Shown: positions 1 to 30,118 of the stretch, piece after piece
How positions within the stretch are numbered: the stretch's first letter is position 1
Layout of the letters: every line of letters begins with the position of its first letter
The notes under the pieces: generated by a model
What the model was told of the DNA's origin: nothing
Database searches by the model: none
Seen by the model: the letters and a program-made list of their open reading frames with translations, nothing else
Source: a virus
Length of the DNA: 43,509 bases
Virus record (IMG/VR): IMGVR_UViG_3300029286_001647
Reading direction: 5' to 3' (one strand)
Position numbers and translations under genes: made by a program

Positions 1-365
1 GTGAATACTGCCGAATCAGATCTGTTAAACGTACCGGCAGCGACTAGGTCTTTTACATTACAATATACTGGTATGATAACCCTATTATCGTAGCCTCTAG
101 TGTCTTTCCTGGCATCGTTTCTCGACAGAAAAACATGTATACCATAATCAATACTTTTTGTACTCTTCTCATCGCCTGTCAAACGCTTTCTTTTTCTATC
201 TGATCTAAAAATGCCAGAAGACACCCTTATATGACGATAAGGAGTTTCTAAGATGCCAAAACCAATATACCTCAGTACCTTAAATAGTACGAGATTTCCA
301 TTCTCATCGGTGTTAGACTTAGAGCAAAGACTTCTCGCTATATTACCGTTCATTGTAAGGCACAT
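1..365 (-). CDS. hypothetical protein, 3' end off-window (begins MCLTMNGNIARSL)
   Basis: ATG at ~365 on minus strand, open to the window edge; no recognisable motif. Confidence 0.35.
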   Translation of the reverse strand, partial: MCLTMNGNIARSLCSKSNTDENGNLVLFKVLRYIGFGILETPYRHIRVSSGIFRSDRKRKRLTGDEKSTKSIDYGIHVFLSRNDARKDTRGYDNRVIIPVYCNVKDLVAAGTFNRSDSAVF

Positions 366-378
366 CTTTAGTTCTCCT

Positions 379-825
379 TTACGCTCTTGGAACACATCCC
401 TCTAACAGAATATCTACCATATTTTTGGTATTTTGATCCAGGTTCTCATACCACTTTCTTGCGAGTTTATACATTTCCTTCCTATGCTTTTCTCTCTCGA
501 TCTCTTCCGCTTCTTCCCATGCCACTTCTTCTTCAATATCCTTTATATAACATAAGGCGGAATCACCTATTATGCGAACATCATTTTTAGCCTCATCTGC
601 GTATACCATACGCCTATAGGATACTGTATCTTTACTTTCATTTTTATATACTGTATCAGTATATAACGGTGCATCAGATGGCGACAATGTTATTTTGTTT
701 ACTACATCTAATACCTCAGATAGTTTCATATAAGGGAATATGATTCTCAAAGCTTTCATAAACCTAATCTTGTCGAAAACCTTTGAGATATATACTTGCT
801 TTTTGCCCATATTGTAAATTGTCAT
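379..825 (-). CDS. hypothetical protein (148 aa)
   Basis: ORF track; ATG verified at 825..823, overlapping the upstream stop (TAATG). Confidence 0.5.
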   Translation of the reverse strand: MTIYNMGKKQVYISKVFDKIRFMKALRIIFPYMKLSEVLDVVNKITLSPSDAPLYTDTVYKNESKDTVSYRRMVYADEAKNDVRIIGDSALCYIKDIEEEVAWEEAEEIEREKHRKEMYKLARKWYENLDQNTKNMVDILLEGCVPRA

Positions 826-1178
826 TATTCCTTTACCTCTGTTTTTGGCTCAAACCACTTTCCTACATCTCCGCAAAGCCAGTCCATATCTCTACAAGTA
901 GATGCATATTCATTTTCTACTAATGAATTCTCTTCAATATGCTCTATCGCACCAGTGACATTATTCATCTTATCATGAGCAGGTGTAAAATACCTCATAT
1001 TGTTCGCGTGATGACAAGATACTCTATACTGTAAACTTGAGCTACCTATTCTTATAAAAGACCATCTACAATTTACACATGTTCTAACAACAGGAGCAGG
1101 TTCAGTATCTATCTCTACCTCATCAGATCCTTTCTTGCCCTTCCATGACTTGATCTTGTCCATTACCTTTTTCAGCAT
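825..1178 (-). CDS. hypothetical Cys-rich protein (117 aa)
   Basis: ORF track; CxxC...CHH pattern. Confidence 0.45.
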   Translation of the reverse strand: MLKKVMDKIKSWKGKKGSDEVEIDTEPAPVVRTCVNCRWSFIRIGSSSLQYRVSCHHANNMRYFTPAHDKMNNVTGAIEHIEENSLVENEYASTCRDMDWLCGDVGKWFEPKTEVKE

Positions 1179-1308
1179 CTTCTTCTTTGATCCTCTGAGC
1201 CTCTTCTTTAGTGATTTTACACACTTTATTGCGCATCAAAAAGCGCCTTGGAGTGTGCTTACGACTTCCATCCCAAACCAGATTCGGTATCCTCTTTTTT
1301 CCTAACAT
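1123..1308 (-). CDS. small hypothetical protein (61 aa)
   Basis: ORF track; overlaps the next ORF, weak. Confidence 0.25.
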   Translation of the reverse strand: MLGKKRIPNLVWDGSRKHTPRRFLMRNKVCKITKEEAQRIKEEDAEKGNGQDQVMEGQERI

Positions 1309-1406
1309 AATTCCCTATATTGTACTCTATTTATATACCACTACTATTTTGCAAAGGGTGTAAGGTTCGAAAGGTTTTCACTTTTTACCAGTTTCCCCTA
1401 TAACTT

Positions 1407-1417
1407 ATTATACCACA
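1407..1417 (-). promoter_or_regulatory. extended -10-like 'TGGTATAAT' upstream of 1123-1308
   Basis: reverse complement of 'attataccaca'. Confidence 0.25.
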
Positions 1418-2259
1418 ATAAGTTGTGGCTGAAAACGCTTCACTAATTTCTCGTCTAATTCCGCCAAAAAATCTTTACCATACTTTCCGTTTTCTAGGCA
1501 CAGAATGAGGTTTTCTGGTATGTCTTTTTCGTACTCATCGCAATGTGATGCTGCTGACATTGCGATAGCTGCGACTGTATCGACATCTCCGCCGAAATCA
1601 ATACAATTGTAAAGTAGTTCTTGCAATGATTCAGAAGTGACTACTGCCGTGACCGCAGCGTGTACGATGTCCATACCTTTTGACCCTACTTTGCCTTGCC
1701 ACAAATCAAGCCAAGGTCCAGAGGGACCATCTAGTGCCAGATAAACTTGGAGATCATCTTTTGTTCCAAGCTTATTGATGAAGTAGTGAGCCATCATCAT
1801 TGCAATGATTGCCGAGTTAATTCCGTTTTCTGTATTATGGGTGATAGCAGCCTGTATAGTACATAGTTTCTTGGCGGCATCAAGATCTTTGATAAAGCCA
1901 AGAGGCGCAGAGCGCATAGCTGCTCCACCTTTTTCGCTATCAGGCTTTATCTTTTTGAGGAACTCTTTACCAGATTTGATTTCCTGCAAGAAGGCATAAA
2001 AGCGATGAGCATATCCTGTTCTTTGATCTCTCTTAAAGACCTCAACAAACTTGTTGGCAATGATAAGTGGAGTCCACTCTTTCTCGTACAGCATGAGTTC
2101 AGCTATAGCGATACTCATTTGTGTATCGTCTGTATAACGTCCAGGCGCGCCTTTGTGTCTTGGATGATTTATATACATCTTGACTGTATTGAGGTCGAGA
2201 TTATCAGCGAACTCAAAGGCGCTTCCGTAGGCATCAGCTATTCCCATTTCAACTAACAT
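1408..2259 (-). CDS. ADP-ribosylglycohydrolase (ARH/DraG-like)
   Basis: motifs 'ADAYGSAFEF', 'GRYTDDTQMS', 'GGDVDTVAAIAMS' match ARH family signatures; start set at internal ATG (MLVEMGIAD) just past the upstream stop, with an AAGGAAAA ribosome-binding site. Confidence 0.85.
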   Translation of the reverse strand: MLVEMGIADAYGSAFEFADNLDLNTVKMYINHPRHKGAPGRYTDDTQMSIAIAELMLYEKEWTPLIIANKFVEVFKRDQRTGYAHRFYAFLQEIKSGKEFLKKIKPDSEKGGAAMRSAPLGFIKDLDAAKKLCTIQAAITHNTENGINSAIIAMMMAHYFINKLGTKDDLQVYLALDGPSGPWLDLWQGKVGSKGMDIVHAAVTAVVTSESLQELLYNCIDFGGDVDTVAAIAMSAASHCDEYEKDIPENLILCLENGKYGKDFLAELDEKLVKRFQPQLIVV

Positions 2260-2794
2260 TGTTTTCCTTTTCCCAAAAATCAGCACATTTACCACTACAG
2301 AACTTAGCTTCTGGATTTTTATCAATAGTTATATAAGAATCGTTTGCAGTTATCATTTGATTACAATAAGCACAAAAAGAATTACTCTCTTCCCATCTAT
2401 TCGCATGATCTGGGCAACAGAAAACAGCATCAGGATACTTGTTATCAGACGAAAATTGTATTCCTTTTATTACGCAATGACAATAAGAGCATCTTGTTTC
2501 TTCATAGTCTTTTTCATCTATAGTAAGAGTCAGAAGTTCTTTACGAAGCTTTTCTTCTGTCTTCTCTTTTGACTTTATAGCATTTACGAGTTCTGTCACA
2601 TCATCAAAATTAACTTCTACCTCATCAAACTTAGTGATCTCGTCTGCTCTCTGGCTATCTCCCAGAAAAGAGTAGTTCTTATTGATATACAATCCAGCAT
2701 CAGGGACAAATATTTCCTGAATAAGATAAGAACTTCCGTGGATCGCGTCCATAAAACTTTCAGATACTCTTGTCACATATCTTTTCCCCTTCAT
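2249..2794 (-). CDS. protein with two C-terminal FCS/TRASH-type zinc fingers
   Basis: 'CSYCHC...FCCPDH' and 'CAYC...KFCSGKC' match the C-x2-C...F-C-S-x2-C pattern. Confidence 0.5.
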   Translation of the reverse strand: MKGKRYVTRVSESFMDAIHGSSYLIQEIFVPDAGLYINKNYSFLGDSQRADEITKFDEVEVNFDDVTELVNAIKSKEKTEEKLRKELLTLTIDEKDYEETRCSYCHCVIKGIQFSSDNKYPDAVFCCPDHANRWEESNSFCAYCNQMITANDSYITIDKNPEAKFCSGKCADFWEKENNVS

Positions 2795-2796
2795 TT

Positions 2797-3276
2797 TTAT
2801 TCCCCCCTCTTTAAAGCATTTTTGTAATCTTCTTCTGAAATCTCATATTCGGTACAAACTACGCACCATATATTTTTATAGCAATCGAATTCCCCTATCG
2901 CAACGAAATGCTCTTTCTTAATCTTAATAGGAATAGTAATCATCTTACTTAGCCATGCCACAGTGGTAGGTCTATCGAGTCCAGAGTACAAATACTCTGA
3001 TATCAACATCTCATTGCCATTCTCCTCCAAAAAACAATGGCATACCCCGCCATTTAGAGCCTGCCCGTCTGCAAGACAATCTATATGATTAGCCCTAAAC
3101 AACGTCGATAATGGAGTATTAGTGCCAGGCGTTAAAAGGGTATCCATGTACGGAGAAAGCAGAACATCTTTGTGATAGTCACTTACTCTGACTGCTTTAT
3201 AAAACGTCCGCGGTTGACCATCAGTCCAGGCATCGAGATACTCTTGAGTTTTTTTAGCATCTACGATTGTGCACAT
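2797..3276 (-). CDS. MC-family paralog 1 (159 aa, starts MCTIVD)
   Basis: shares N-term 'MCT(I/V)..(K/R)T..(F/Y)L..W.DG..KTF(Y/W)K.V', 'SPY', 'G..H..L' and 'IPI.IKK..F..IG.F' with 4 other ORFs. Confidence 0.6.
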   Translation of the reverse strand: MCTIVDAKKTQEYLDAWTDGQPRTFYKAVRVSDYHKDVLLSPYMDTLLTPGTNTPLSTLFRANHIDCLADGQALNGGVCHCFLEENGNEMLISEYLYSGLDRPTTVAWLSKMITIPIKIKKEHFVAIGEFDCYKNIWCVVCTEYEISEEDYKNALKRGE

Positions 3277-3743
3277 AGGTATTTTCCCTTTACTGCGTCT
3301 TCATAGACTTGTGGGTCGATTGTATATTTCAGAGAGACAACACAAGCTGTTTTCATGTCATCTCCGAAAATGCCTATTCCTCTGAAAGCATCTTTCTTAA
3401 TCTGAATTGGGATCATAGATAAGTCTTTTCTCTCACTCATAGTACGACAATAAACTTTATGAAACTCTTTTGCCTCTGATTCCAATAATAGGCAATGGAA
3501 GAATCCGCAACGAACATCTTCCATTGCGAAAACATCTTCCATCCCTTTAAATCTACCTACAGCATTATCCCCTTTATCGATAGGTATTTCATAATAAGGA
3601 GACATCATTTTAACTGGAACAGGATAGCTTCTTGACACAACGCAAGGTCCAGCGACAACCAGTTTCCAGAAGGTTTTGACTTCTCCGTCTTTCCACTCAG
3701 CGAGAAAACTTTCTGTTCTCGCTCTGTCTACGATTGTACACAT
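3261..3743 (-). CDS. MC-family paralog 2 (160 aa)
   Basis: paralogous to 2797-3276; 16-nt start/stop overlap 'ATGTGCACAATCGTAG' conserved with the next junction. Confidence 0.6.
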   Translation of the reverse strand: MCTIVDRARTESFLAEWKDGEVKTFWKLVVAGPCVVSRSYPVPVKMMSPYYEIPIDKGDNAVGRFKGMEDVFAMEDVRCGFFHCLLLESEAKEFHKVYCRTMSERKDLSMIPIQIKKDAFRGIGIFGDDMKTACVVSLKYTIDPQVYEDAVKGKYLCAQS

Positions 3744-4207
3744 TTGTATTCACCCTCCAAAGCTTTTTGATAGACTTCTGGATCTACGGAGTAGCAAGTA
3801 GATATAACACAATCAACGCCTTCATGATCCGGGAATTCACCTATGCCCAAGAAATCTTTTTTCTTTATCTTGATTGGTATGATAGATATGCTTTTATCCA
3901 TGCTAGGCAAATAGCTACGAAGTTTTTGCGCACTAGCATTATCTAGCAAAGCGTGATAAACACCACCATATATATCAGTTTTGTCGCGCCAGTCTTGGAA
4001 ACATCTAATATATCTAAAACTTTCCCCTTTAGCTATATATGCACTTTGGTATAAAGAAACTAATCCGCTTGGTGAAACCTTTCCAGTATCTTGATTTAAC
4101 GTCTGATATAGACTGAAACAAACCGCTTTGTAGAAGGTCTTTTCTTCTTCGTCTCCCCATTCAGCCAGAAACTTTTCAGTTTTTTCTTTATTGAATACGG
4201 TACACAT
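3728..4207 (-). CDS. MC-family paralog 3 (159 aa)
   Basis: paralogous; C-terminus 'EGEYKCVQS' resembles 'KGKYLCAQS' of paralog 2. Confidence 0.6.
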   Translation of the reverse strand: MCTVFNKEKTEKFLAEWGDEEEKTFYKAVCFSLYQTLNQDTGKVSPSGLVSLYQSAYIAKGESFRYIRCFQDWRDKTDIYGGVYHALLDNASAQKLRSYLPSMDKSISIIPIKIKKKDFLGIGEFPDHEGVDCVISTCYSVDPEVYQKALEGEYKCVQS

Positions 4208-4212
4208 AAGAT

Positions 4213-4584
4213 CTACTCCGCTTTATATGTATCCTGAAACCTTTGTTGTACCGCAGAAAGCGCCACGATTGCTTTAGAGCATTGGAAACCGCTCAGATGG
4301 TAGCAAAGAGCGTCTATCCCATCTGCATCGCCCTGAAACTCTTTACCGATGTTTGAGACAGAAAACAAATGATCCAGCGCCATACCGATACTCACAGAAT
4401 GCAATTCTTGAATTGCTTTCGTGATAAGGTCGATCAGTTCTTGAGGGGAATTGGCAGTGGCAACTGCTGCCAGAATCTTCGTGACAGCGGCTTTATCTTG
4501 ATCCGCCGAAAATGGATGCTGCACTTTGCAGATAGAAAGCAATTGGTCTGGACTGTAATCTTTGTTCACTTCGTTTCCTTTCAA
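4213..4584 (-). CDS. hypothetical protein (123 aa)
   Basis: ORF track. Confidence 0.5.
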   Translation of the reverse strand: MKGNEVNKDYSPDQLLSICKVQHPFSADQDKAAVTKILAAVATANSPQELIDLITKAIQELHSVSIGMALDHLFSVSNIGKEFQGDADGIDALCYHLSGFQCSKAIVALSAVQQRFQDTYKAE

Positions 4585-4612
4585 TAGAAGTCCATTTTAC
4601 CAGAAAAAGGCT

Positions 4613-4969
4613 TCACCAATCCTTTTCTCTTTGCCCACATCTTTTGCAAATATAGATACTTAAGTCACCGGCTCCCATATGTGAATACTTCCAATCGTGA
4701 CCCCATCTAGCACAATTCTCTTTATTCTGCACTTGTATCCTGTCTTCTCGTAGATCTTCGTTTTCTCTTTTCAACCTATCTACTTCTGCCTTTAGCTTGT
4801 CATTCTCTAGCTTTAAATCGTTCTGAATGTAATCTATCTCCAGTGACGATTCTTGTCTTGCTGCTTTCTTGTCAACGCTAAGACATCTCTTTCTGTGAGG
4901 AGTAGCTTTAGACTTTCTTCTACCAGATATGCCTCTAAGATTTTTGTTTGATTTGCCGTAAGGTTGCAT
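4613..4969 (-). CDS. hypothetical coiled-coil protein with C-terminal zinc ribbon
   Basis: start moved to internal ATG (MQPYGK) abutting the upstream stop; 'CKRCGQ' at C-term. Confidence 0.4.
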   Translation of the reverse strand: MQPYGKSNKNLRGISGRRKSKATPHRKRCLSVDKKAARQESSLEIDYIQNDLKLENDKLKAEVDRLKRENEDLREDRIQVQNKENCARWGHDWKYSHMGAGDLSIYICKRCGQREKDW

Positions 4970-4970
4970 C

Positions 4971-5303
4971 TTAATCTCCGAAGTCAGGCACTTCTTTGCG
5001 CAATGGTCCGTCAACCATCTTCTTTCTTTTCGTAGATTGTACAAAACCACATGTTTTACAAGTACGAGTCCACATATCTTCTGTTGTGGGGGAAACATGG
5101 CATGGGAGTTGCCTATCCACTCCCATCGTCCCTACTGGATCGCCAGCGAAGTAGTATCCAGGGGTGCGTATAGGCTCATATTTCGTTTCTGCCCATTGGT
5201 GATGGCATGAATCTTTTACTTGTGCTGCAAGCCTTCTCATATGGTTAGCTTGTTTTTCGAGATCTATTGCGGCATCTATATATTCTTTAAACATTTTTGC
5301 CAT
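4971..5303 (-). CDS. hypothetical protein (110 aa), Cys/His-rich
   Basis: ORF track. Confidence 0.45.
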   Translation of the reverse strand: MAKMFKEYIDAAIDLEKQANHMRRLAAQVKDSCHHQWAETKYEPIRTPGYYFAGDPVGTMGVDRQLPCHVSPTTEDMWTRTCKTCGFVQSTKRKKMVDGPLRKEVPDFGD

Positions 5304-5315
5304 TGATATATCTCC

Positions 5316-5873
5316 TTATTTTGGTTTAATCCTTGCTTGTATGTCCGCCAAAATCTTGTCTGGTTCAAACTTTATGTCATCCATTGCTCCCATAAAGTTT
5401 TCCTCAATTTCCTCATCTGTCTTATCTCTAGCATATTCAGGGTATCTTTTTCTTATATTTATTGCATCAAACAATCTTTCTTCTTCATTGACGGCTTTAA
5501 TAGCATTAGATTCTGCTGTATTCCCATAAGCCATACCCGTATCTGTATTCCAGGGATTTCCGTCTGTAGGGATATAAGCTCTAAGTTTACCTTTACTGGA
5601 ATAGAGGATCCAAAATACAGGAACCTCCCAATCACCGGCGCACGAAATGCCGAGAAATGTCAAGCCATTAGGCAAAGTATGATAACCGAATATGCTTCTA
5701 TCACCTAGTATATCTTCATTCTCACAATCAAAATGGCATTTACTCAGATCCTTTTCTATTTCCTTAGTAAGCTCTCTCCATGTATATCTAGATGAGTTCT
5801 TGGCATCAGTACGGGCTTGATAAATCTTTTCCTCAAGCTCTTCAATCGTTATCTTGTCAAAATGCCTCGCCAT
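5316..5873 (-). CDS. hypothetical protein (185 aa)
   Basis: ORF track. Confidence 0.5.
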   Translation of the reverse strand: MARHFDKITIEELEEKIYQARTDAKNSSRYTWRELTKEIEKDLSKCHFDCENEDILGDRSIFGYHTLPNGLTFLGISCAGDWEVPVFWILYSSKGKLRAYIPTDGNPWNTDTGMAYGNTAESNAIKAVNEEERLFDAINIRKRYPEYARDKTDEEIEENFMGAMDDIKFEPDKILADIQARIKPK

Positions 5874-5886
5874 TTTTTGTTTCCTT

Positions 5887-6033
5887 TCAATCTCGTTCTT
5901 TAGCTTCTACGATTGTGACAGACACAATAGTTGCACCGATGATAACAACCAATACCGATACTGGATTGAGACAGCAAATTACAGCCGCAGCAGCCCAGAT
6001 ACCAGCAATCGCAACTCCTTTCCCAACACTCAT
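5887..6033 (-). CDS. small hydrophobic protein (48 aa), not in ORF track
   Basis: AGGAGG 7 nt upstream of ATG; 'MSVGKGVAIAGIWAAAAVICCLNPVSVLVVIIGATIV...' is one long TM segment. Confidence 0.35.
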   Translation of the reverse strand: MSVGKGVAIAGIWAAAAVICCLNPVSVLVVIIGATIVSVTIVEAKERD

Positions 6034-6044
6034 CTCATTCCTCC

Positions 6045-6242
6045 TTAACTTATATCCAAACAAGCATTACAGATAAAACCATCAAGCACAGAATGTAAAC
6101 AAGAGAAACATATTGTAGCGCCGCACATAATACATTCTTCTGTATCGCACTCGTCTACTCTCGCGCCGCAGTTATCACATTCTACTTCATCGCCATTTTC
6201 CTCATCCTGATACGTCATCGTTCTCCTCCTTATTCTTCTCAA
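6045..6242 (-). CDS. small zinc-ribbon protein (65 aa)
   Basis: multiple CxxC pairs. Confidence 0.4.
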   Translation of the reverse strand: MRRIRRRTMTYQDEENGDEVECDNCGARVDECDTEECIMCGATICFSCLHSVLDGFICNACLDIS

Positions 6243-6606
6243 GTTCTGCTATTTGTTTCTTAAGATCAGCTATGATACGATTTGCCCTTGCAAGCTCCTC
6301 ATTAGTCTTAGCAAGGCTCTGCATCTCTCCCATAATCTTCTCTTGGAAGTCTTTGCTTCTGGCTTCTTCTGAGAAGTTAAACAAGTGCATCATATTTGCT
6401 TCTCTAAAGATATACTCTGTAAGGACAAACAAATCATCATCATCTCTAAGACCAGTACCGCATTCACTGATTGCAGTTATAATGCTTAGATTCATCGGCT
6501 TCTCTTCTTTTAAAGCGCGAGAATAAGCTTTTGCAGCCGCCTTCATCGGTGTATCTGCGATAATTGCTGTCTCAAAATCACCACTTATAATATAATACTT
6601 TGGCAT
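6202..6606 (-). CDS. hypothetical protein with C-terminal coiled coil (134 aa)
   Basis: ORF track. Confidence 0.5.
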   Translation of the reverse strand: MPKYYIISGDFETAIIADTPMKAAAKAYSRALKEEKPMNLSIITAISECGTGLRDDDDLFVLTEYIFREANMMHLFNFSEEARSKDFQEKIMGEMQSLAKTNEELARANRIIADLKKQIAELEKNKEENDDVSG

Positions 6607-7118
6607 TACTCCTCCTTAACAGACTTTTTTAGCTCATTCAGACGCGCTATAATCTTATCTTGAACCCCTTCGAATGGCACTTTATTGTCAAACGTTGGTA
6701 TTGTATATTTCGTGACAACGGCAGAATTAGGTTCTCCTCCCTTATAATCAAACCTGCCCAAAGCGACGAAATCCTTTTTATCTACCTCGACTTCTACAAT
6801 ATAGCACTCGTATGAACAATGTATTAATTGGGCGCAATTGTTTTGAAGTAGAGCAATAGCCCCGCCTTCTATGATCGAGTCTACGCTTAAAAACAGATGA
6901 GCGCCCCTTGTCACTTCTTTAAGCTCAATCTCTAGATGAGAAAGAGTGTTATCTATTCTACTAGAATAGTTTTCACCGAGATTAATCTCCAATCCCATAT
7001 ATGGAGAAAGATATGCCTCAGGATAGCATCTAACAACCTTAAGAAATGTCTTTTTCTCGCCGTCTTTCCAATCTGCAAGAAACTTGCCAGTTGCCTCTAT
7101 ATCCGGTATTAAGCACAT
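6606..7118 (-). CDS. MC-family paralog 4 (170 aa, MCLIPDIEATGKFLADWKDGEKKTF)
   Basis: same motif set as the 2797-4207 trio. Confidence 0.6.
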   Translation of the reverse strand: MCLIPDIEATGKFLADWKDGEKKTFLKVVRCYPEAYLSPYMGLEINLGENYSSRIDNTLSHLEIELKEVTRGAHLFLSVDSIIEGGAIALLQNNCAQLIHCSYECYIVEVEVDKKDFVALGRFDYKGGEPNSAVVTKYTIPTFDNKVPFEGVQDKIIARLNELKKSVKEE

Positions 7119-7629
7119 TTTTGTTCTCCTTTACTGAGGATTTCATTCGTCTCGTCTACTATTGGTATTACAGATAGACCGGCTTCAAGAGAGGGAATGT
7201 TATATTCCATTACTACGGCACAAGTGACTTCCCCATTAGCAGTTTCAAACCTGCCTACCGCAAATATGTCTTTCTTCTCGACTTCTACAGGGATAATATA
7301 CATATTGTCCATCCCATTAAACGTGTCCTTATCTATATGATCTACTTTATTGTCTCTAGCGTGAATCAAAAGATCTTTCTGTAAAGAATCTTTTTCCAAA
7401 AACAAATGGCATCCATACATTACATATTGACCACGAATCTCGTAATCTTCTAGGTAATTGATAGACCTGGCTGACCTATTAATGCCTTTATGGACCCACA
7501 ACCTATAAATGGTGTTATGAATGTGCCATCCTTTTGTCTATTAACAAGCTTCCAGAAGGTTTTGACTTCCCCATCTTTCCACTCTGCGATGAACTTTTTA
7601 GTCGCTTCTAGATCAAGTGTTAAGCACAT
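7109..7629 (-). pseudogene. MC-family paralog 5, frameshifted
   Basis: N-terminus 'MCLTLDLEATKKFIAEWKDGEVKTFWKLV' (ATG ~7629) runs 59 codons to a stop at ~7452; the family 'GCHLFLEKD...IPVEVEKKDIFAVGRF' continues in another frame (7109-7501). Confidence 0.45.
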
Positions 7630-8303
7630 TTCTTCTCTCCTTCTTCTAAGGCTCTTACTTCGTCCTGTTGCTCTTTACTCATTATGATGAAAAGTTCTTT
7701 TTGCTGTTCTATCATATCATGAATCATCTTATCTTTATCCGCCTGAGAAGTATGCTTAAAGTAATCAGGAGTTTTGCAATGTCTGATACCGACAATGCAC
7801 TTCTTATACCTATCAAAAGCCGCTTCCTGATCATCTTCCCATTTTCTCAGTACTGCTGCGAACAGATTAAGTCCAGTCTGAGTGTCAATATGATAGTTCA
7901 TAACGCCTTTGCAGTATCGCTCTTCGATTTCTGCTTTGATCTCATCCATATTCCTGCCAAGTTTTATAAGCAAATCTTTGTTCTTTTCTATATCTGCATA
8001 AGCTGATTTCTTGGCGGGTTCGCCGTACCACTTAATTGGGTCCATACCTCCAGCATATCCTGCAACCCTTATGACTTCTCCAGCGATTTCATTGAGAGGA
8101 ACAGAATACTTAAAGGGCAATGCAGGTCCATTTGCCACCCAATAATACCAAGCTCTGTGCAATGTCCAACCACATATAGAACCTGTGATTTTGCTAGGAA
8201 CTTCTCCGGTTGATTTAGCACCTTTTATGGCGCTTATACCCGCTGTACGGAGTTCCTCTTTGATATACAAATCACATTCCTCATTTCCCGCCAGATTAAT
8301 CAT
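7620..8303 (-). CDS. hypothetical protein (227 aa)
   Basis: ORF track; stop overlaps the paralog-5 ATG. Confidence 0.5.
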   Translation of the reverse strand: MINLAGNEECDLYIKEELRTAGISAIKGAKSTGEVPSKITGSICGWTLHRAWYYWVANGPALPFKYSVPLNEIAGEVIRVAGYAGGMDPIKWYGEPAKKSAYADIEKNKDLLIKLGRNMDEIKAEIEERYCKGVMNYHIDTQTGLNLFAAVLRKWEDDQEAAFDRYKKCIVGIRHCKTPDYFKHTSQADKDKMIHDMIEQQKELFIIMSKEQQDEVRALEEGEKKCA

Positions 8304-8611
8304 TCGTCTTTTTCCTCATCTTTCGGATCGAAAACTTTGTCTTTCATCCAGCCATTTTTCTTGTCATGAGCGTCTTTGCATTGCTTATAGAACTTCTCAT
8401 TGTTAAGTATCATATACAGTAGTGGCAGGATAAGAGGCCATAGGATAATCCATATAATAATAGCCTCTGGTTCGGAAAGAGTACTCTTATTAGGGTCTTG
8501 CAAAGCAAGAAGCTTCTGCATCGCGTCTGGATGCTCCAACATATATTTCTGGAATAAGTCTATACTGGCAATGCCAATAAGAGCGTAGAAAAGTAGGATA
8601 TAAAAAAACAT
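8300..8611 (-). CDS. small membrane protein (103 aa)
   Basis: two hydrophobic segments; ATGA overlap with neighbours. Confidence 0.45.
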   Translation of the reverse strand: MFFYILLFYALIGIASIDLFQKYMLEHPDAMQKLLALQDPNKSTLSEPEAIIIWIILWPLILPLLYMILNNEKFYKQCKDAHDKKNGWMKDKVFDPKDEEKDE

Positions 8612-9207
8612 TACTTAGATTCTCCAAAATGAAAATTGAGACCTTGCATGAACCCACCGAGTCTCAAGAACATAAACACTTTTGCGTCCATCAGGTCTTT
8701 ATCTTTACCGGCGACAAGACCGTAGATGTCATTGGCTGTAGGAATGAATACCTCTATATCCTCCGAAGACTCATTCAGAGAGGTTGAGATTTCTCCCTCT
8801 ACTTCTGCCGCGATAACTACTGCGCATTCGTCTGTGATGCCGGGAGAATTGAACATAGTAGGAGACTCCCACAAAATCTTTGTGATTTCGAGTCCTGTTT
8901 CTTCTTTGATCTCTCTTCGTGCGGCAGACTCAGGAGTTTCATCACCATCAATCAAACCCGCTGGGAACTCTATGACGTAGTCATTGACAGGGACGCGAAA
9001 TTGGCGGATCAGAACTGGTTTGCCTTTGAGAAAAGGAATAACAACGACAGCATCAGGCTTCGTCCTTTTGGCGGGATCTTCGAGACGTGAGGCGAAAATC
9101 CAATTCCCGCGCTTACCGTTATGTTCGTAAGATGACATAAACAGATTGAGGAATCTGTAGGCAGACAACTTCAACGTTTCAATAACTTTCATTTTGCGTC
9201 CTTTCAA
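8611..9207 (-). CDS. Nudix hydrolase, probable ADP-ribose pyrophosphatase
   Basis: perfect Nudix box 'GLIDGDETPESAARREIKEETGL' (G-x5-E-x7-REUxEExGU). Confidence 0.8.
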   Translation of the reverse strand: MKGRKMKVIETLKLSAYRFLNLFMSSYEHNGKRGNWIFASRLEDPAKRTKPDAVVVIPFLKGKPVLIRQFRVPVNDYVIEFPAGLIDGDETPESAARREIKEETGLEITKILWESPTMFNSPGITDECAVVIAAEVEGEISTSLNESSEDIEVFIPTANDIYGLVAGKDKDLMDAKVFMFLRLGGFMQGLNFHFGESK

Positions 9208-20774: not shown

Positions 20775-21977
20775 TTACTCTCCCTTAATGACAGCGACAG
20801 GCATAAGCTTGTACAAAATCTTGACAAGATCAGACTGAGAGGTCATAACTTTTTCTATATCCTTGTAAGCGTCTGGAGACTCATCCAAGGTCGCATGAGT
20901 AGGAGTAAACTCAATTCCTTTCATCGACTTCTTGAAAGCTTCCATACCGATAGAAGACTTCGCTTGAGTCCTAGACATAGCGCGTCCAGCTCCGTGAGAG
21001 CAGGAATGGAATGACTTAGGTTGTCCCAATCCCTGAACAATGTAAGACGCAGTTCCCATAGAGCCAGGAATAATCCCAGTTGTCTGATGGCTTGCGAATG
21101 TAGCGCCCTTACGGTGGACAATACAAGTCTCTTTGAAATGGCTTTCAAGAGCTGCATAATTGTGATGGATGTTGATCATCTTTTTCGCAGGAGGCATAGG
21201 AAATCCAAGAGCCTCAAAAACCTCAATAGAGATTTCCATCATGCAGTACCTGTTCATCTCCGCGAAATCCAGACAGAAGTTCATCGCGTCGAAATACTCT
21301 TTCCCCTCATTAGAAGAGAACGGGAGGAAAGACAAAGCCTTCATCTCGACTGGCAAGTTGGTATGCCAAGCCTGATTTCTCTCCCATGATATATTGGAAT
21401 AGGTATCGCAAACAGTCTTGCCGATGTTGCGAGAACCAGAATGGATCATAATCCAAGTATTGCCTTGTTCATCAGTGAGCAAGTTCCAGAAATGATTTCC
21501 GCCGCCGAGAGTGGCAATCTGTTCTCTAACGCATTGGTCGATGTTTACAGGCGCAGTCTTCCAGAAAGACTTACCATCATATTTTCCATGAAGCTTCTCA
21601 ACGCATTTTTCTGACGAAGTAGTTGTCTTCTTAGGATCTCTATGTGCCATGCCGACAGGCATAAGGAACTTGATACGCTTCATAATGTCAGCGATCTTTT
21701 CCTTAACGCTTGTCCAAGTAAGACCAGTATTGAGAGCAACCATTCCGCAGCCGATGTCAGATCCAACAGCCCACGGAGAAATCGCGTCATCCAATGCCCA
21801 AACGCAACCCACCGGAACGCCGAATCCCTGATGGCAATCTGGCATTAGCGCAACGTGATGATAAACAGCAGGATGATTCGCCGCCATAAGCGCCTGTTCA
21901 AGAGCGCCAGGCTCAAGATTATCGCACCACGAAAAGATAGGTACTTTCTGCTTCTCTTTGTCAAAAATTACGTTCAT
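20775..21977 (-). CDS. rtcB: RNA ligase RtcB
   Basis: 'MPDCHQGFGVPVG', 'GSDIGCGM', 'SCSHGAGRAMSR' match RtcB motifs. Confidence 0.9.
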   Translation of the reverse strand: MNVIFDKEKQKVPIFSWCDNLEPGALEQALMAANHPAVYHHVALMPDCHQGFGVPVGCVWALDDAISPWAVGSDIGCGMVALNTGLTWTSVKEKIADIMKRIKFLMPVGMAHRDPKKTTTSSEKCVEKLHGKYDGKSFWKTAPVNIDQCVREQIATLGGGNHFWNLLTDEQGNTWIMIHSGSRNIGKTVCDTYSNISWERNQAWHTNLPVEMKALSFLPFSSNEGKEYFDAMNFCLDFAEMNRYCMMEISIEVFEALGFPMPPAKKMINIHHNYAALESHFKETCIVHRKGATFASHQTTGIIPGSMGTASYIVQGLGQPKSFHSCSHGAGRAMSRTQAKSSIGMEAFKKSMKGIEFTPTHATLDESPDAYKDIEKVMTSQSDLVKILYKLMPVAVIKGE

Positions 21978-23158: not shown

Positions 23159-23419
23159 TTACCACTTTGACGGTTTATGAAACCAGTTTGAAACCTTATC
23201 ATCACTTTTACCACATGCAATTGCTACTATAGCAGCTATTAGCATGATAAAAGTCCAAATAGGACCGAATCCGATAACAGCTATGACAGTAGCGATAGCA
23301 TAGGCATTAGACCACATTCCTCCGCCATAATTCTTAACTCCACATCTATGAATAAAATAGCCAGGAACACCCATAAGAACCCATAAGATATATGTTAGGA
23401 TGGCAGGATCCATATTCAT
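23159..23419 (-). CDS. small 2-TM protein, KPxKW family (…NWFHKPSKW)
   Basis: one of a tandem array sharing the C-terminal W-x2-3-(K/E)P(A/S)(K/S)W. Confidence 0.5.
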   Translation of the reverse strand: MNMDPAILTYILWVLMGVPGYFIHRCGVKNYGGGMWSNAYAIATVIAVIGFGPIWTFIMLIAAIVAIACGKSDDKVSNWFHKPSKW

Positions 23420-23426
23420 TCCTCCT

Positions 23427-23681
23427 TCACCATTTTGACGGTTTATTCAGCCACTTGTCAAGGCTATATCCCTTTTCGTCTAGGGCGATAAGGATAACAG
23501 CGATAGAGCCAAGTATAGAACCTACAGGTCCGCATATAGAGCAACAGACAATAAAGAAAATACTGTCTTTAACAAGCCATCGCTCTTTCTGTCTTTTCGT
23601 TATGCTCCTGATGATGATATAGGCAGGAATGCCAGCAACAATCCATCCCAGAATAAACATTAAAGTCCACAAAGCATCCAT
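23427..23681 (-). CDS. small 2-TM protein, KPxKW family (…KWLNKPSKW)
   Basis: as above. Confidence 0.5.
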   Translation of the reverse strand: MDALWTLMFILGWIVAGIPAYIIIRSITKRQKERWLVKDSIFFIVCCSICGPVGSILGSIAVILIALDEKGYSLDKWLNKPSKW

Positions 23682-24404: not shown

Positions 24405-24668
24405 TTACCATTTCGCAGGTTTATCAGACCACAAGTATCCCCACCACTTACCAATTTTTCTTCCGGGATGTGCTTCCCACCAGTCGCAAAACAGAGCGCC
24501 AAGTAAAACACATACAAAAATCAAACCTATCAAAGACATTATAAGGCAAAGTGTCCTGTCAGAAGAAGACCATTTACCATGCTGATCTCTTTTGACGTAC
24601 CATCTCATAAACAGATAAGATGATACATAACAAGCCAGGTACGCAAGTATCCATAGGAAAGCTGTCAT
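24405..24668 (-). CDS. small 2-TM protein, KPxKW family (…LWSDKPAKW)
   Basis: as above. Confidence 0.5.
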   Translation of the reverse strand: MTAFLWILAYLACYVSSYLFMRWYVKRDQHGKWSSSDRTLCLIMSLIGLIFVCVLLGALFCDWWEAHPGRKIGKWWGYLWSDKPAKW

Positions 24669-25712: not shown

Positions 25713-27023
25713 TTATCCCACAATCTTTCCCTTTTCAACATTTACTTTTTCTCCCTCCGCCAAGCCAAGAACTTTACTATCTAAAATGGCAAAAGGATAA
25801 CTCCCATCGGCATCTTTCCAACGCTGTACCAATACCGCTCCGATATGCACTATCCATCCAACTTTTTCTGAGCATACAGAGCATACAGATGAATTAGAAA
25901 TCTCTACTATGGAACATTGACCAGTGACAGACGAAGAGCATAATTCTCCCATGTTCTTCAATACGGATTGATCTCCAGTTGATGATTGACTGGATTGATA
26001 TCCAGTTGAGGATTGACTGGATTGATCTCCAGTTGATGATTGACTGGATCGATGTCCAGTTGAGGATTGACTGGATCGATATCCAGTTGAGGATTGACTG
26101 GATTGATCTCCAGTTGATGATTGACTGGATCGATGTCCAGTTGAGGATTGACTGGATCGCTCTCCAGTCGATGATTGACTGGATTGATATCCAGTTGATG
26201 ATTGACTGGATTGATATCCAGTTGAGGATTGACTGGATTGATCTCCAGTTGATGATTGACTGGATCGCTCTCCATTCGATGATTGACTGGATTGATATCC
26301 AGTTGATGATTGACTGGATCGATATCCAGTTGAGGATTGACTGGATTGATGTCCAGTTGAGGATTGACTGGATTGATCTCCATTCGATGATTGACTGGAT
26401 TGATATCCAGTTGATGATTGACTGGATCGATATCCAGTTGAGGATTGACTGGATTGATCTCCAGTTGATGATTGACTGGATCGATGTCCAGTTGAGGATT
26501 GACTGGATCGCTCTCCAGTCGATGATTGACTGGATCGATCTCCAGTTGTATACCCATCGTTATTCTTCTTAGAGTCTTCGACAATCCATGCAATTCTTCC
26601 AGATTGTGTAAAATACATAGCAGACGACAATGACCCATTATGAACAACTTCAACAGACTTAGCTTTCACTTTTCCTCCATCGATAGAGACTACATCAGAT
26701 GGAGTAGCAGCAAGCACCAAGAACGGCAAAGTTGCATCTACATCCTTGCCTTCCCCGAGAAACATCCCCCATGGCCAAGCGTGAATCCCATTTCCGCATT
26801 TTGGTTTAGGATCCCAATCTGGACATTCTACAATACCAGACTCAGGCCAAGTAATTACAGGAGCAGTAGTCCCATCTTCCTTATCCATACCGCCTGTAGT
26901 ACGATTTCTCTCGATTTGCTTAACGAGCAAAACCTTTGTTCCATCGTGCGTCCACTGATGGATTGGGATATCAAACACTTTTTCCACATCTTTTACTGGT
27001 TCTTTAATGTCGTTTTCAGCCAT
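25713..27023 (-). CDS. Ser-rich repeat protein (436 aa): N-terminal domain, ~22 copies of the 9-aa repeat 'SSQSSTG(D/Y/H/E)(Q/R)', C-terminal domain
   Basis: encoded by the 27-bp tandem DNA repeat. Confidence 0.65.
   Translation of the reverse strand: MAENDIKEPVKDVEKVFDIPIHQWTHDGTKVLLVKQIERNRTTGGMDKEDGTTAPVITWPESGIVECPDWDPKPKCGNGIHAWPWGMFLGEGKDVDATLPFLVLAATPSDVVSIDGGKVKAKSVEVVHNGSLSSAMYFTQSGRIAWIVEDSKKNNDGYTTGDRSSQSSTGERSSQSSTGHRSSQSSTGDQSSQSSTGYRSSQSSTGYQSSQSSNGDQSSQSSTGHQSSQSSTGYRSSQSSTGYQSSQSSNGERSSQSSTGDQSSQSSTGYQSSQSSTGYQSSQSSTGERSSQSSTGHRSSQSSTGDQSSQSSTGYRSSQSSTGHRSSQSSTGDQSSQSSTGYQSSQSSTGDQSVLKNMGELCSSSVTGQCSIVEISNSSVCSVCSEKVGWIVHIGAVLVQRWKDADGSYPFAILDSKVLGLAEGEKVNVEKGKIVG
25964..26550. 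repeat. tandem 27-bp repeat, ~21-22 copies (plus-strand unit 'ccagttgatgattgactggattgatat')
   Basis: visible directly; patterned variants at 3-4 positions per unit; all six frames open. Confidence 0.9.
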
Positions 27024-28883: not shown

Positions 28884-29624
28884 TTAGCTTATTTCTACAT
28901 CATCAATATAATGATCGAAGCTTTCTTTGTTTATCTCAAACCCACAAGGTCTTCTATTGAGACGCTGAGACACAATCGCTGTCGTAAAGTTCCCTAAGAA
29001 GAAATCACAAACAACATCTTCTTCTTGAGAAGAATAGCTTATGATCTTCTCAATCAATGCTTCTGGAAGTTTGTTCACGTTCTTTACTGCGCCAGGGCAA
29101 TACTCTTTGTTGATCGTCCAAACATCTTCCATATCCTTATAAACCATAGAACGACCTTTATTAGTTCTCGCATCGTCTTGGAACCTACAATTCCTATTGA
29201 AATACGGTTTGGCTTTCTTGCTCTTTTTGCAATACAGAATATGGTAATGTGAGCTGACAAACTTCTTTTTCGTGTAAACTCCAAAGTTGTATTTCCATAT
29301 AATGTGATTGATTACAACAAATCCTGCTTCATTCAGAGCGTTTAGGACATGGTTAAGGTTTGTCCATCCTGAGAAGACATAGAAGCTTCCATTAGGCTTT
29401 AGAACGCGATATGCTTCTTTCATCCATTCTGTAGTGAACCTGTAATAATCTGGAGGCGCTTCTACATATCCAGATATGATGTTATTCGCCTTACGATTAT
29501 AATGTTGCTTATCGAAAGATGTTTCTGATAGACCGAAAGGAGGATCGCAGATCATAAGGTCTACAGATCCATCAGCAATATATTTTTTCGCGCCAGAAAT
29601 GCAATCTTCATTGTATATATTCAT
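28884..29624 (-). CDS. DNA methyltransferase, beta-class N6A/N4C, with degenerate motif I
   Basis: 'MICDPPFG' then 'VVCDFFLGNFTTAIV'. Confidence 0.75.
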   Translation of the reverse strand: MNIYNEDCISGAKKYIADGSVDLMICDPPFGLSETSFDKQHYNRKANNIISGYVEAPPDYYRFTTEWMKEAYRVLKPNGSFYVFSGWTNLNHVLNALNEAGFVVINHIIWKYNFGVYTKKKFVSSHYHILYCKKSKKAKPYFNRNCRFQDDARTNKGRSMVYKDMEDVWTINKEYCPGAVKNVNKLPEALIEKIISYSSQEEDVVCDFFLGNFTTAIVSQRLNRRPCGFEINKESFDHYIDDVEIS

Positions 29625-30118
29625 TTCTTATTGGCGCGCTCCTTAAGGTCTTCTCTGACTTTCGTAATTGCTTCGCCCAGCCAGTTAGTCCCTTGCCAAT
29701 TCTTCCTGTCGTAAATGCGAGGATCATCCTTTGCCATATGTATTCCCCATATAGCATCCGTAGGAGATGCTTCCACTAACAAAGTCCCATCCGTCTCGAC
29801 AAGGCTTTTCATCATATGATCATTTTGAGTGAACTTCGCCATATTGCCTTGATATACAATGTCTTTGGCTACTGCTTGCCATCTCTCTACATCAAAATCT
29901 TTTACCTGCTTACCCAAAGCTTTCTGCTCTCTGGGGTCAGATGTTGACATAATTCGCTCAAGGATTTCATAATCTGCAAACATGACAGCTTTATTTGCCA
30001 TCATCCACTGTTCCGCTGAATTATACTTAACCCCATCAATTACGAAATCGCATCTTGCCCATTGGGAAAAAGGACCACCATAGAAAAACGTAAACTTATC
30101 ATACTTCTCGAAATCCAT
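29621..30118 (-). CDS. NADAR (YbiA/DUF1768) domain protein
   Basis: 'FFYGGPFSQWARCDFVIDGVKYNSAEQWMMANKAVMF' and 'EASPTDAIWGIH' parallel E. coli YbiA (recalled). Confidence 0.75.
   Translation of the reverse strand: MDFEKYDKFTFFYGGPFSQWARCDFVIDGVKYNSAEQWMMANKAVMFADYEILERIMSTSDPREQKALGKQVKDFDVERWQAVAKDIVYQGNMAKFTQNDHMMKSLVETDGTLLVEASPTDAIWGIHMAKDDPRIYDRKNWQGTNWLGEAITKVREDLKERANKK

Follow-up and report, generated by a model that had tools for sequence, protein, structure and literature searches.

The 43,509-nucleotide (nt) viral sequence IMGVR_UViG_3300029286_001647 (the window, meaning the whole stretch of DNA analysed) carries a tandem family of small proteins that begin with Met-Cys, all encoded on the minus strand within a long run of densely packed minus-strand open reading frames (ORFs). 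The initial annotation had described five such proteins. These are real and their coordinates hold, with four of them intact, but the fifth is frameshifted, and a sixth copy at the edge of the window (1-365) was missed, and further copies are located on an adjoining contig. The copies are labelled c1 to c11 here, and residue numbers (C2, K27, H85, D118) are those of c1. All functional claims made below are computational. The copies in the window are:

3728-4207, minus strand: c1, 159 amino acids (aa), intact, starting MCTVFNKEKTEKFLAEW...; drawn from the ORF list and the alignments, and the query of the AlphaFold2 (AF2) models
3261-3743, minus strand: c2, 160 aa, intact; its start shares 16 nt (3728-3743) with the c1 stop
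2797-3276, minus strand: c3, 159 aa, intact; its start shares 16 nt (3261-3276) with the c2 stop
6606-7118, minus strand: c4, 170 aa, intact, starting MCLIPDIEATGKFLADW...
7109-7629, minus strand: c5, disrupted by a frameshift, starting MCLTLDLEATKKFIAEWKDGEVKTFWKLV...
1-365, minus strand: c6, starting MCLTMNG (MCLTMNGNIARS...), truncated by the contig end; profile match at E 9e-7

The last of these was found with a hidden Markov model (HMM) of the other five copies, run on a six-frame translation of the window. BLASTP comparison of the intact copies c1-c4 gave E-values of 2e-25 to 3e-6 (search space 2e7 residues), with 1.9e-25 for c1-c2, and the c4-c5 pair gave 1.5e-29; pairwise values spanning 1e-29 to 3e-6 mean that the similarity between copies is not due to chance, and the concern that it might be spurious can be set aside. 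The motifs MC(T/L), FLAEW.DG..KTF.K.V, SPY, G.H and IP..IKKKDF..IG.F are present in the window copies as had been described, except that the true G.H motif of c4 and c5 is G(A/C)HLFL, which lies upstream of the segment matched by the small alignment. In c4 this motif reads G-A-H-L-F-L and is followed by an insertion of about 20 aa, and c3 has E-H instead of the usual K-D at positions 117-118.

The N-terminal ORF of c5 comprises 59 aa (7450-7629) and is closed by a stop at 7450, while the remainder (7109-7501) lies in the -1 frame, the switch falling directly after ...ITPFIG. Repair of the frameshift gives a protein of 173 aa with 40% identity to c4. The same split, in which genes of 59 aa and 96 aa are called, recurs in four assemblies from two sequencing runs; these four contigs are 100% identical to the window at the DNA level and are therefore not independent evidence for it. 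A programmed -1 frameshift was considered and rejected, as the shift site has no X XXY YYZ slippery heptamer and the broken copies at two other loci (L016 and L017) break elsewhere or have lost the start codon. We regard c5 as probably a pseudogene because this fits the birth-and-death pattern of the family described below.

Consecutive copies were initially said to overlap by a conserved 16 nt. For the first cluster this stands: the overlap ATGTGCACAATCGTAG is exact at 3261-3276 (c2/c3) and has one mismatch at 3728-3743 (c1/c2). The second cluster instead has a 10-nt overlap, ATGTGCTTAA, at 7109-7118 (c5/c4) and again at 7620-7629, where c5 is joined to a gene outside the family:

7620-7629, minus strand: stop/start overlap ATGTGCTTAA, joining the 227-aa gene to c5
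7620-8303, minus strand: 227-aa protein unrelated to the Met-Cys family, matching phrog_35792 (E 3.6e-14; function unassigned in PHROGs)

At these junctions, the C-terminal GE.KC(A/V) of the upstream protein is encoded by the nucleotides that, in another frame, form the Shine-Dalgarno sequence (GGAG) and ATGTG start of the next gene. Recurring overlapping stop/start junctions of this kind are consistent with translational coupling across the copies, as had been proposed. The tail of the 227-aa protein, ...RALEEGEKKCA, resembles the family tail (c1 ends ...KALEGEYKCVQS), and therefore the duplication unit probably ran from the tail of one copy into the next; this suggests that a duplication breakpoint lies within the tail of a former copy at the 227-aa gene. 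A promoter and terminator scan of positions 1-9500 returned counts no higher than the shuffled expectation.

The truncated copy c6 can be followed onto a second contig. The same sample contains a 30-kb contig (L013; ENA ERZ27250635 k141_1704877) that has a 16-nt exact in-frame overlap with the window end, the first 16 nt of L013 being identical to the last 16 nt of the window minus strand. The c6 frame, which reads ...NRSDSAVF in the window, continues on L013 as TKVKILQEDL... into a typical family C-terminus. A remote homologue, P0021, is located at position 80 of this contig, and five further copies lie there in tandem:

80-502, 505-948, 961-1449, 1742-2329 and 2333-2902 of L013: five tandem family copies

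The phage thus encodes 11 or more copies, including the frameshifted c5, in the sub-clusters c1-c3, c4-c5 and c6-c11, with identities of 26-42% inside sub-clusters and 17-31% across them; the joining 16-mer sits in a motif common to the paralogues, so that the exact order of the array is provisional. A circular contig was also considered as the explanation for the truncation and was rejected, there being no terminal overlap and no continuation of the truncated copy at the opposite end of the window. The initial observation was essentially right, with three corrections: the c5 frameshift, the shorter overlaps of the second cluster and the presence of many more copies.

When 1.8 billion cluster representatives were searched exhaustively with an HMM (cut-off E <=1e-3), 93 proteins were returned; about 85 of them stand for clusters of distant homologues, 127-189 aa long, whose alignment begins at residue 1. 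The 90 aligned sequences form a single BLAST-connected component. Lys27 and His85 are present in all 90 sequences. A Met-Cys start, previously proposed to be invariant and still the most striking conserved feature, is found in 87/90, and 88/90 start with Met or Val followed by Cys. The three remaining starts are a GTG start (VCL), a miscalled start with an internal MCL, and a sequence beginning MTS... without the MCL segment, which may be truncated. Position 26 is Tyr, Trp or Phe in 88/90; Gly82 and Gly123 are each conserved in 83/90, Leu3 in 75/90 and Asp118 in 74/90, and many of the aligned sequences also share (S/T)-P-(Y/F) at positions 51-53 and a Gly...Arg loop. Cys2 is encoded by both TGT and TGC, and Leu3 by TTA, TTG, CTT, CTA and CTC, with GGAG located 5-9 nt 5' of the start in most copies. 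This synonymous variation rules out Met-Cys as a nucleotide-level signal and indicates that the Met-Cys-Leu start is real and selected at the protein level.

The window copies matched no family in Pfam, NCBIfam or PHROGs, and searching Pfam with all 90 members gave scattered noise and no family. The sole library match is PHROG 13450, which has no functional annotation: it is matched, starting at residue 1, by 16 of the 90 members and by the family consensus (E 8.4e-9), while the window copies themselves fall below it. Distant relatives therefore exist in sequenced phages. GenBank phages gave no match, either to the region by megablast or to c1, the family consensus and three remote members by tblastn. 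No relatives were detected with the search modes used in IMG/VR (including a degenerate K-D-F-V-A-A-G pattern), in a JGI metagenome scan or in GTDB genomes queried with P0045. A word-indexed protein search returned the phage's own proteins and those of four relatives, and no others; P0007 is a close homologue of c4 in another phage. Among the papers searched, we found none describing the Met-Cys family or giving the rIIB core, to which we return below, a fold. The copies thus belong to a real, fast-evolving, multi-copy, single-domain phage-specific family of about 130-190 aa that is uncharacterised, as the initial annotation had recognized.

Comparison of copy number across other phage contigs revealed that every locus with enough sequence carries several copies, some of them broken:

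L005: 5 copies, on a 185-kb T4-like contig
L008: 2 copies
L012: 3 copies and a fragment
L014: 2 copies
L016: 2 copies and 1 decayed copy (start codon lost, frameshifted)
L017: at least 5 copies and 2 broken copies, on an 8-kb contig

The family evolves by birth and death, through tandem duplication, divergence to 17-42% identity, and decay. Expansion of paralogues to 11 copies in this phage and to 2-7 in others, accompanied by pseudogenes, is a pattern that usually marks the host-virus interface.

An AF2 model of c1 built from the 5-sequence alignment reached a predicted local distance difference test score (pLDDT) of 79.1 and a predicted template modelling score (pTM) of 0.76, and these values rose to 84.4 and 0.80 with the 90-sequence alignment. 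Both models have the same secondary structure, with the N-terminal 30 residues confidently placed. The protein is predicted to adopt a split beta-sheet fold like that of ADP-ribosyltransferases (ARTs), and its size is that of minimal ART domains such as RES/ParT, Tne2, TreTu, AcrIF11 and Arr. BC2332-like and CC0527-like proteins are families of the SCOP ADP-ribosylation superfamily, the former being d.166.1.6 (PMC3000352), and the active-site geometry of BC2332 led to the prediction that this protein is toxin-like (PMC3024214). In a 106-sequence alignment, the column pairs with the strongest covariation (84-87/134-139, 112-114/134-139 and 25/112) connect predicted strands, which provides modest independent support for the predicted sheet. 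Foldseek comparison of the model with BFVD returned small unnamed phage proteins and several rIIB proteins, and no SRAP, N-terminal-nucleophile (Ntn) or amidotransferase structure was among the structural matches. The comparison with SRAP/YedK and class II amidotransferases drawn from Cys2 in the initial annotation is therefore not borne out as kinship: the predicted fold is ART-like, and by sequence the family is related to the rIIB core.

The resemblance to the ART superfamily (BC2332-like, CC0527/DUF952-like, RES/ParT, Tne2, TreTu, AcrIF11, Arr, Tpt1/KptA, DarT) lies in the minimal-domain size, in the occurrence of ART families in phage-host conflict settings beside ADP-ribosylglycohydrolase (ARH), NUDIX and NADAR genes, and, for the H-Y-E clade, in a His within a beta-strand that precedes a helix, as read from the secondary structure of the model. 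The family differs from the superfamily in having no recognizable H-Y-E or R-S-E triad and no sequence-level match to it.

The connection to T4 rIIB (PF26926, Phage_T4_rIIB) was analysed by profile comparison. Alignment of the family with one rIIB using hhalign brought three key motifs into register, and alignment with 38 diverse rIIB sequences gave a probability of 78%, an E-value of 1.8e-5 and a score of 39.9 over 91 columns, whereas controls (2 reversed and 20 column-shuffled profiles) scored <=15.3 with E >=0.15. The aligned motifs are as follows:

Tyr-Lys strand: family ..FYKvV, rIIB ..AYKAVR
G-x-His strand: family G-I-H-V-F, rIIB G-L-H-V-G
Asp-Val-Val-x-Val (D.V(A/S)V) strand: family V.V..kDfVAvG, rIIB IVKVNPKDVVSVP

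The similarity covers core residues ~122-222 of rIIB, and both groups are confined to phages, where their genes lie in early or accessory regions. In contrast to the single-domain Met-Cys proteins of 127-189 aa, rIIB comprises ~290-400 aa, with an additional ~120 aa at the N-terminus and an acidic C-terminal tail. It is also single-copy and paired with rIIA, lacks the Met-Cys start and has the internal invariant cysteines C180 and C230, whereas the family is multi-copy. A search of the window and L013 yielded neither rIIA nor rIIB; L005 and L015 carry a canonical rIIA-rIIB pair 3-7 kb from Met-Cys copies. Homology to the rIIB core is thus supported at the profile and model level, and the family is best described as a stand-alone, N-terminally re-tooled version of this core, and not as rIIB itself. 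It is absent from curated libraries with a function, and falls within rIIB and ART-like fold space.

Few genes in molecular genetics have as long a history as rIIB, which is one reason why this relationship matters. The rIIB protein is an inhibitor of RexAB, has toxic effects on expression and triggers gasdermin/CARD(-NLR) and Tmn defence, and its biochemical mechanism is described as still unclear in papers from 2023-2026 (PMC10312443, PMC13001434). A compact, soluble-looking single-domain relative with a sharply defined invariant N-terminal Cys, Lys and His is a more tractable entry than rIIB, and the family may give the first biochemical lead on it.

The genes surrounding the copies in other phages include RNA ligases. 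The start of an Rnl2-type RNA ligase (PF09414) is overlapped by a copy in L005, and an Rnl1-type RNA ligase (PF09511) by a copy in L012. These are unrelated large phage contigs, and both encode PNKP just upstream of the copy and ligase, with RlaP nearby. Met-Cys copies are interleaved with an RNA-repair cassette (RlaP, PNKP, RNA ligase) at 1-493 and 8288-11396 of L005 and at 6366-11613 of L012. NUDIX genes are located near copies in L012 and L017, and the L012 neighbourhood also contains NAMPT, a Gad2-like protein and NUDIX. The associations with RNA-repair and ADP-ribose genes, drawn from 8 loci, are suggestive only. The recurring neighbours, with RNA ligases and PNKP alongside and ADP-ribose-processing genes close by, hint at substrates that could be tested. 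The window itself contains the following genes of this type and an additional gene that adjoins the family:

1408-2259, minus strand: ARH (PF03747, E 1.3e-29), in the same gene string as c1-c3
2249-2794, minus strand: 181-aa protein, 2-nt spacer downstream of c3; overlaps the ARH gene
8611-9192, minus strand: NUDIX hydrolase (PF00293, E 3.5e-15), upstream of the c5/c4 pair
20775-21977, minus strand: RtcB-type tRNA-splicing/RNA-repair ligase (phrog_1075, E 1.6e-111), ~13 kb from the family
29621-30118, minus strand: NADAR domain protein (ADP-ribose processing), from a precomputed PF08719 match on an identical contig

RNase T, CYTH and YAcAr are also encoded, and the ADP-ribose/NAD and RNA-repair set includes genes at ~11871-13500 on the minus strand. 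This dense set of ARH, NUDIX, NADAR, CYTH, RNase T, YAcAr and RtcB suggests that the phage devotes much of its coding capacity to opposing NAD- or RNA-targeting defences. The 181-aa protein has two zinc-finger-like C-x2-C...FC-x2-C motifs (RCSYCHC...FCCPDH and FCAYCNQ...FCSGKC) and a weak match to ApeA_NTD1 (E 5.8e-5) that is below the Pfam cutoff.

By inference, the Met-Cys proteins are probably early effectors that are undergoing diversification and are built around a Cys/Lys/His centre. A more specific reading, which we hold tentatively and at somewhat less than an even chance, is that they are enzyme-like: host-takeover or counter-defence effectors with a putative catalytic or nucleotide-binding Cys/Lys/His/Asp centre. 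Methionine aminopeptidase removes Met before Cys, which is a permitted penultimate residue, and for this reason we expect Met1 to be cleaved from these proteins, leaving a free N-terminal cysteine. Together with Lys27, His85 and Asp118, this cysteine could form the putative centre. The proteins would be made early from translationally coupled gene strings and would bind or use a ligand of the NAD+/ADP-ribose type, or an RNA end, with each paralogue tuned to a different host target or escaping a different host sensor. Such tuning would parallel T4 Alt/ModA/ModB, and also rIIB, which is sensed by several defence systems. Alt, ModA and ModB are likewise several diverged paralogues of a small enzyme in one phage, partly in tandem (modA-modB), which the phage employs early on to modify distinct host targets (PMC7824862); they offer a functional analogy for the retention of many copies. 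They differ from the Met-Cys proteins in being canonical R-S-E ARTs of ~200-680 aa, with three copies only and no N-terminal Cys. If the Met-Cys proteins are enzymes with an N-terminal Cys nucleophile, this would be new chemistry for an ART-like fold.

A bolder version, which we consider improbable, holds that the family and the rIIB core constitute a new enzymatic branch of the ART fold in which the N-terminal Cys performs covalent chemistry with Lys and His. Possible reactions are thiazolidine capture of an ADP-ribose aldehyde or of an abasic or damaged nucleic-acid end, or a thioester-type intermediate. If correct, this would represent SRAP-like chemistry on an ART-like scaffold and the first mechanistic handle on how rIIB acts against Rex-type abortive infection and is sensed by defences. 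Several results weigh against an enzymatic, ART-related interpretation. The canonical ART triads H-Y-E and R-S-E are unrecognizable, the conserved order being Y53...H85...D118; the His on a strand followed by a helix is compatible with the beta1 His, but the conserved Tyr lies ahead of this His, and only 74/90 sequences have Asp as the acidic residue. No sequence method ties the family to any ART family or solved structure, PDB sequence searches using the profile of either the family or rIIB returned nothing meaningful, and neither an invariant Lys nor an N-terminal Cys characterizes any described ART clade. In the 106-sequence alignment, the covariation signal between residues 3-9 and the His strand does not rise above noise. 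The rIIB link reaches an hhalign probability of only 78%, and an rIIB HMM run on the loci matched only true rIIB and no Met-Cys member. The neighbourhood associations could also reflect co-location in hyperplastic early regions.

The main rival reading, which the absence of canonical ART catalytic triads favours, is that the proteins are non-catalytic binders, decoys or inhibitors (sponge-like or resembling anti-CRISPR (Acr) proteins) that act stoichiometrically on host defence proteins or on a signalling nucleotide. The conserved Cys, Lys and His would then be structural or ligand-contacting, and the paralogues would cover variable targets or evade sensors. Extreme divergence, tandem expansion and frequent pseudogenes are the typical pattern of arms-race binders, and rIIB is physically recognized by Tmn and gasdermin/CARD systems with no reported enzymatic activity. 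Nevertheless, the retention of an invariant Lys and His and a near-invariant Cys at ~20% identity is more like an active site than a variable binding surface, and we regard a purely binding role as unlikely, if far from negligible. The same conserved polar residues could instead be metal ligands, since Cys2, His85 and Asp118 are a plausible set for a hydrolase or phosphoesterase that uses a catalytic metal on an ART-like scaffold. Its substrates would be RNA ends or ADP-ribose derivatives, and it would act together with the RNA-repair or ADP-ribose-processing enzymes encoded nearby: a copy abuts PNKP and RNA ligases in two phages, and this phage encodes ARH, NUDIX, NADAR and RtcB. Such a role is made quite improbable by Asp118, which is present in only 74/90 and replaced by His in c3, and by the lack of any fold match to a known metallohydrolase.

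The conserved Cys2 behind a removable Met is what first suggested an Ntn family member, either an SRAP/YedK-like crosslinker or an Ntn/class II amidotransferase-type hydrolase. SRAP/YedK/HMCES proteins likewise pair a Cys2 exposed by Met removal with a conserved His, which is a chemical analogy only. Although 88/90 sequences have the N-terminal Cys2 (MC or VC) of SRAP/YedK (PF02586), neither the sequence nor the fold of the SRAP domain (~200-250 aa, with conserved Glu and His around the Cys) was found, nor was the four-layer alpha-beta-beta-alpha fold of Ntn proteins and class II glutamine amidotransferases. None of the 90 members matches SRAP, GATase_2/6/7, CBAH or other Ntn Pfam models at E-values up to 0.1, and ~145 aa is too small for a four-layer Ntn sandwich or a ~220-aa SRAP domain; membership of this group is very improbable. 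An assignment as DNA-binding transcription regulators of phage or host genes is just as hard to credit. A survey of jumbo phages (Iyer et al. 2021) calls rIIB orthologues specific transcription factors (PMC7824862), which speaks for such a role, but the region homologous to the family is the central beta-rich core and not a helix-turn-helix.

Elsewhere in the window, two further genes were identified by library matches:

14965-17241, minus strand: 758-aa protein like the major vault protein (MVP), with a precomputed match to MVP_shoulder (PF11978), weakly to Vault_3, and no PHROG match
25713-27023, minus strand: 436-aa tail-fibre-like protein (phrog_5073, E 9.7e-9; phrog_4433, E 3e-28)

The 436-aa protein is the only virion-type gene recognized and supports a phage origin for the sequence, while a major-vault-protein-like gene is unusual in a phage contig. 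ARAGORN detected no tRNA genes in the window. Three ORFs of 86, 84 and 87 aa (23159-23419, 23427-23681 and 24405-24668, minus strand) have hydrophobic N-termini and ...W..KP(S/A)KW endings, and look like a second small paralogous family. The adjacent cysteine-rich 59-aa ORFs at 17562-17741 and 17746-17925 (minus strand; MDRHCDKGCACN... and MKNGAKDACCRC...) are possibly another tandem pair. The GC content is 0.47-0.50 at 36001-40000, compared with ~0.39-0.42 elsewhere in the window, and this end contains kinase-like, PP2C, VWA, HNH, PspA and ligand-gated ion-channel-like genes. From coordinate offsets, a related ENA contig differs from the window by ~430 nt between ~9.3 and 37.4 kb.

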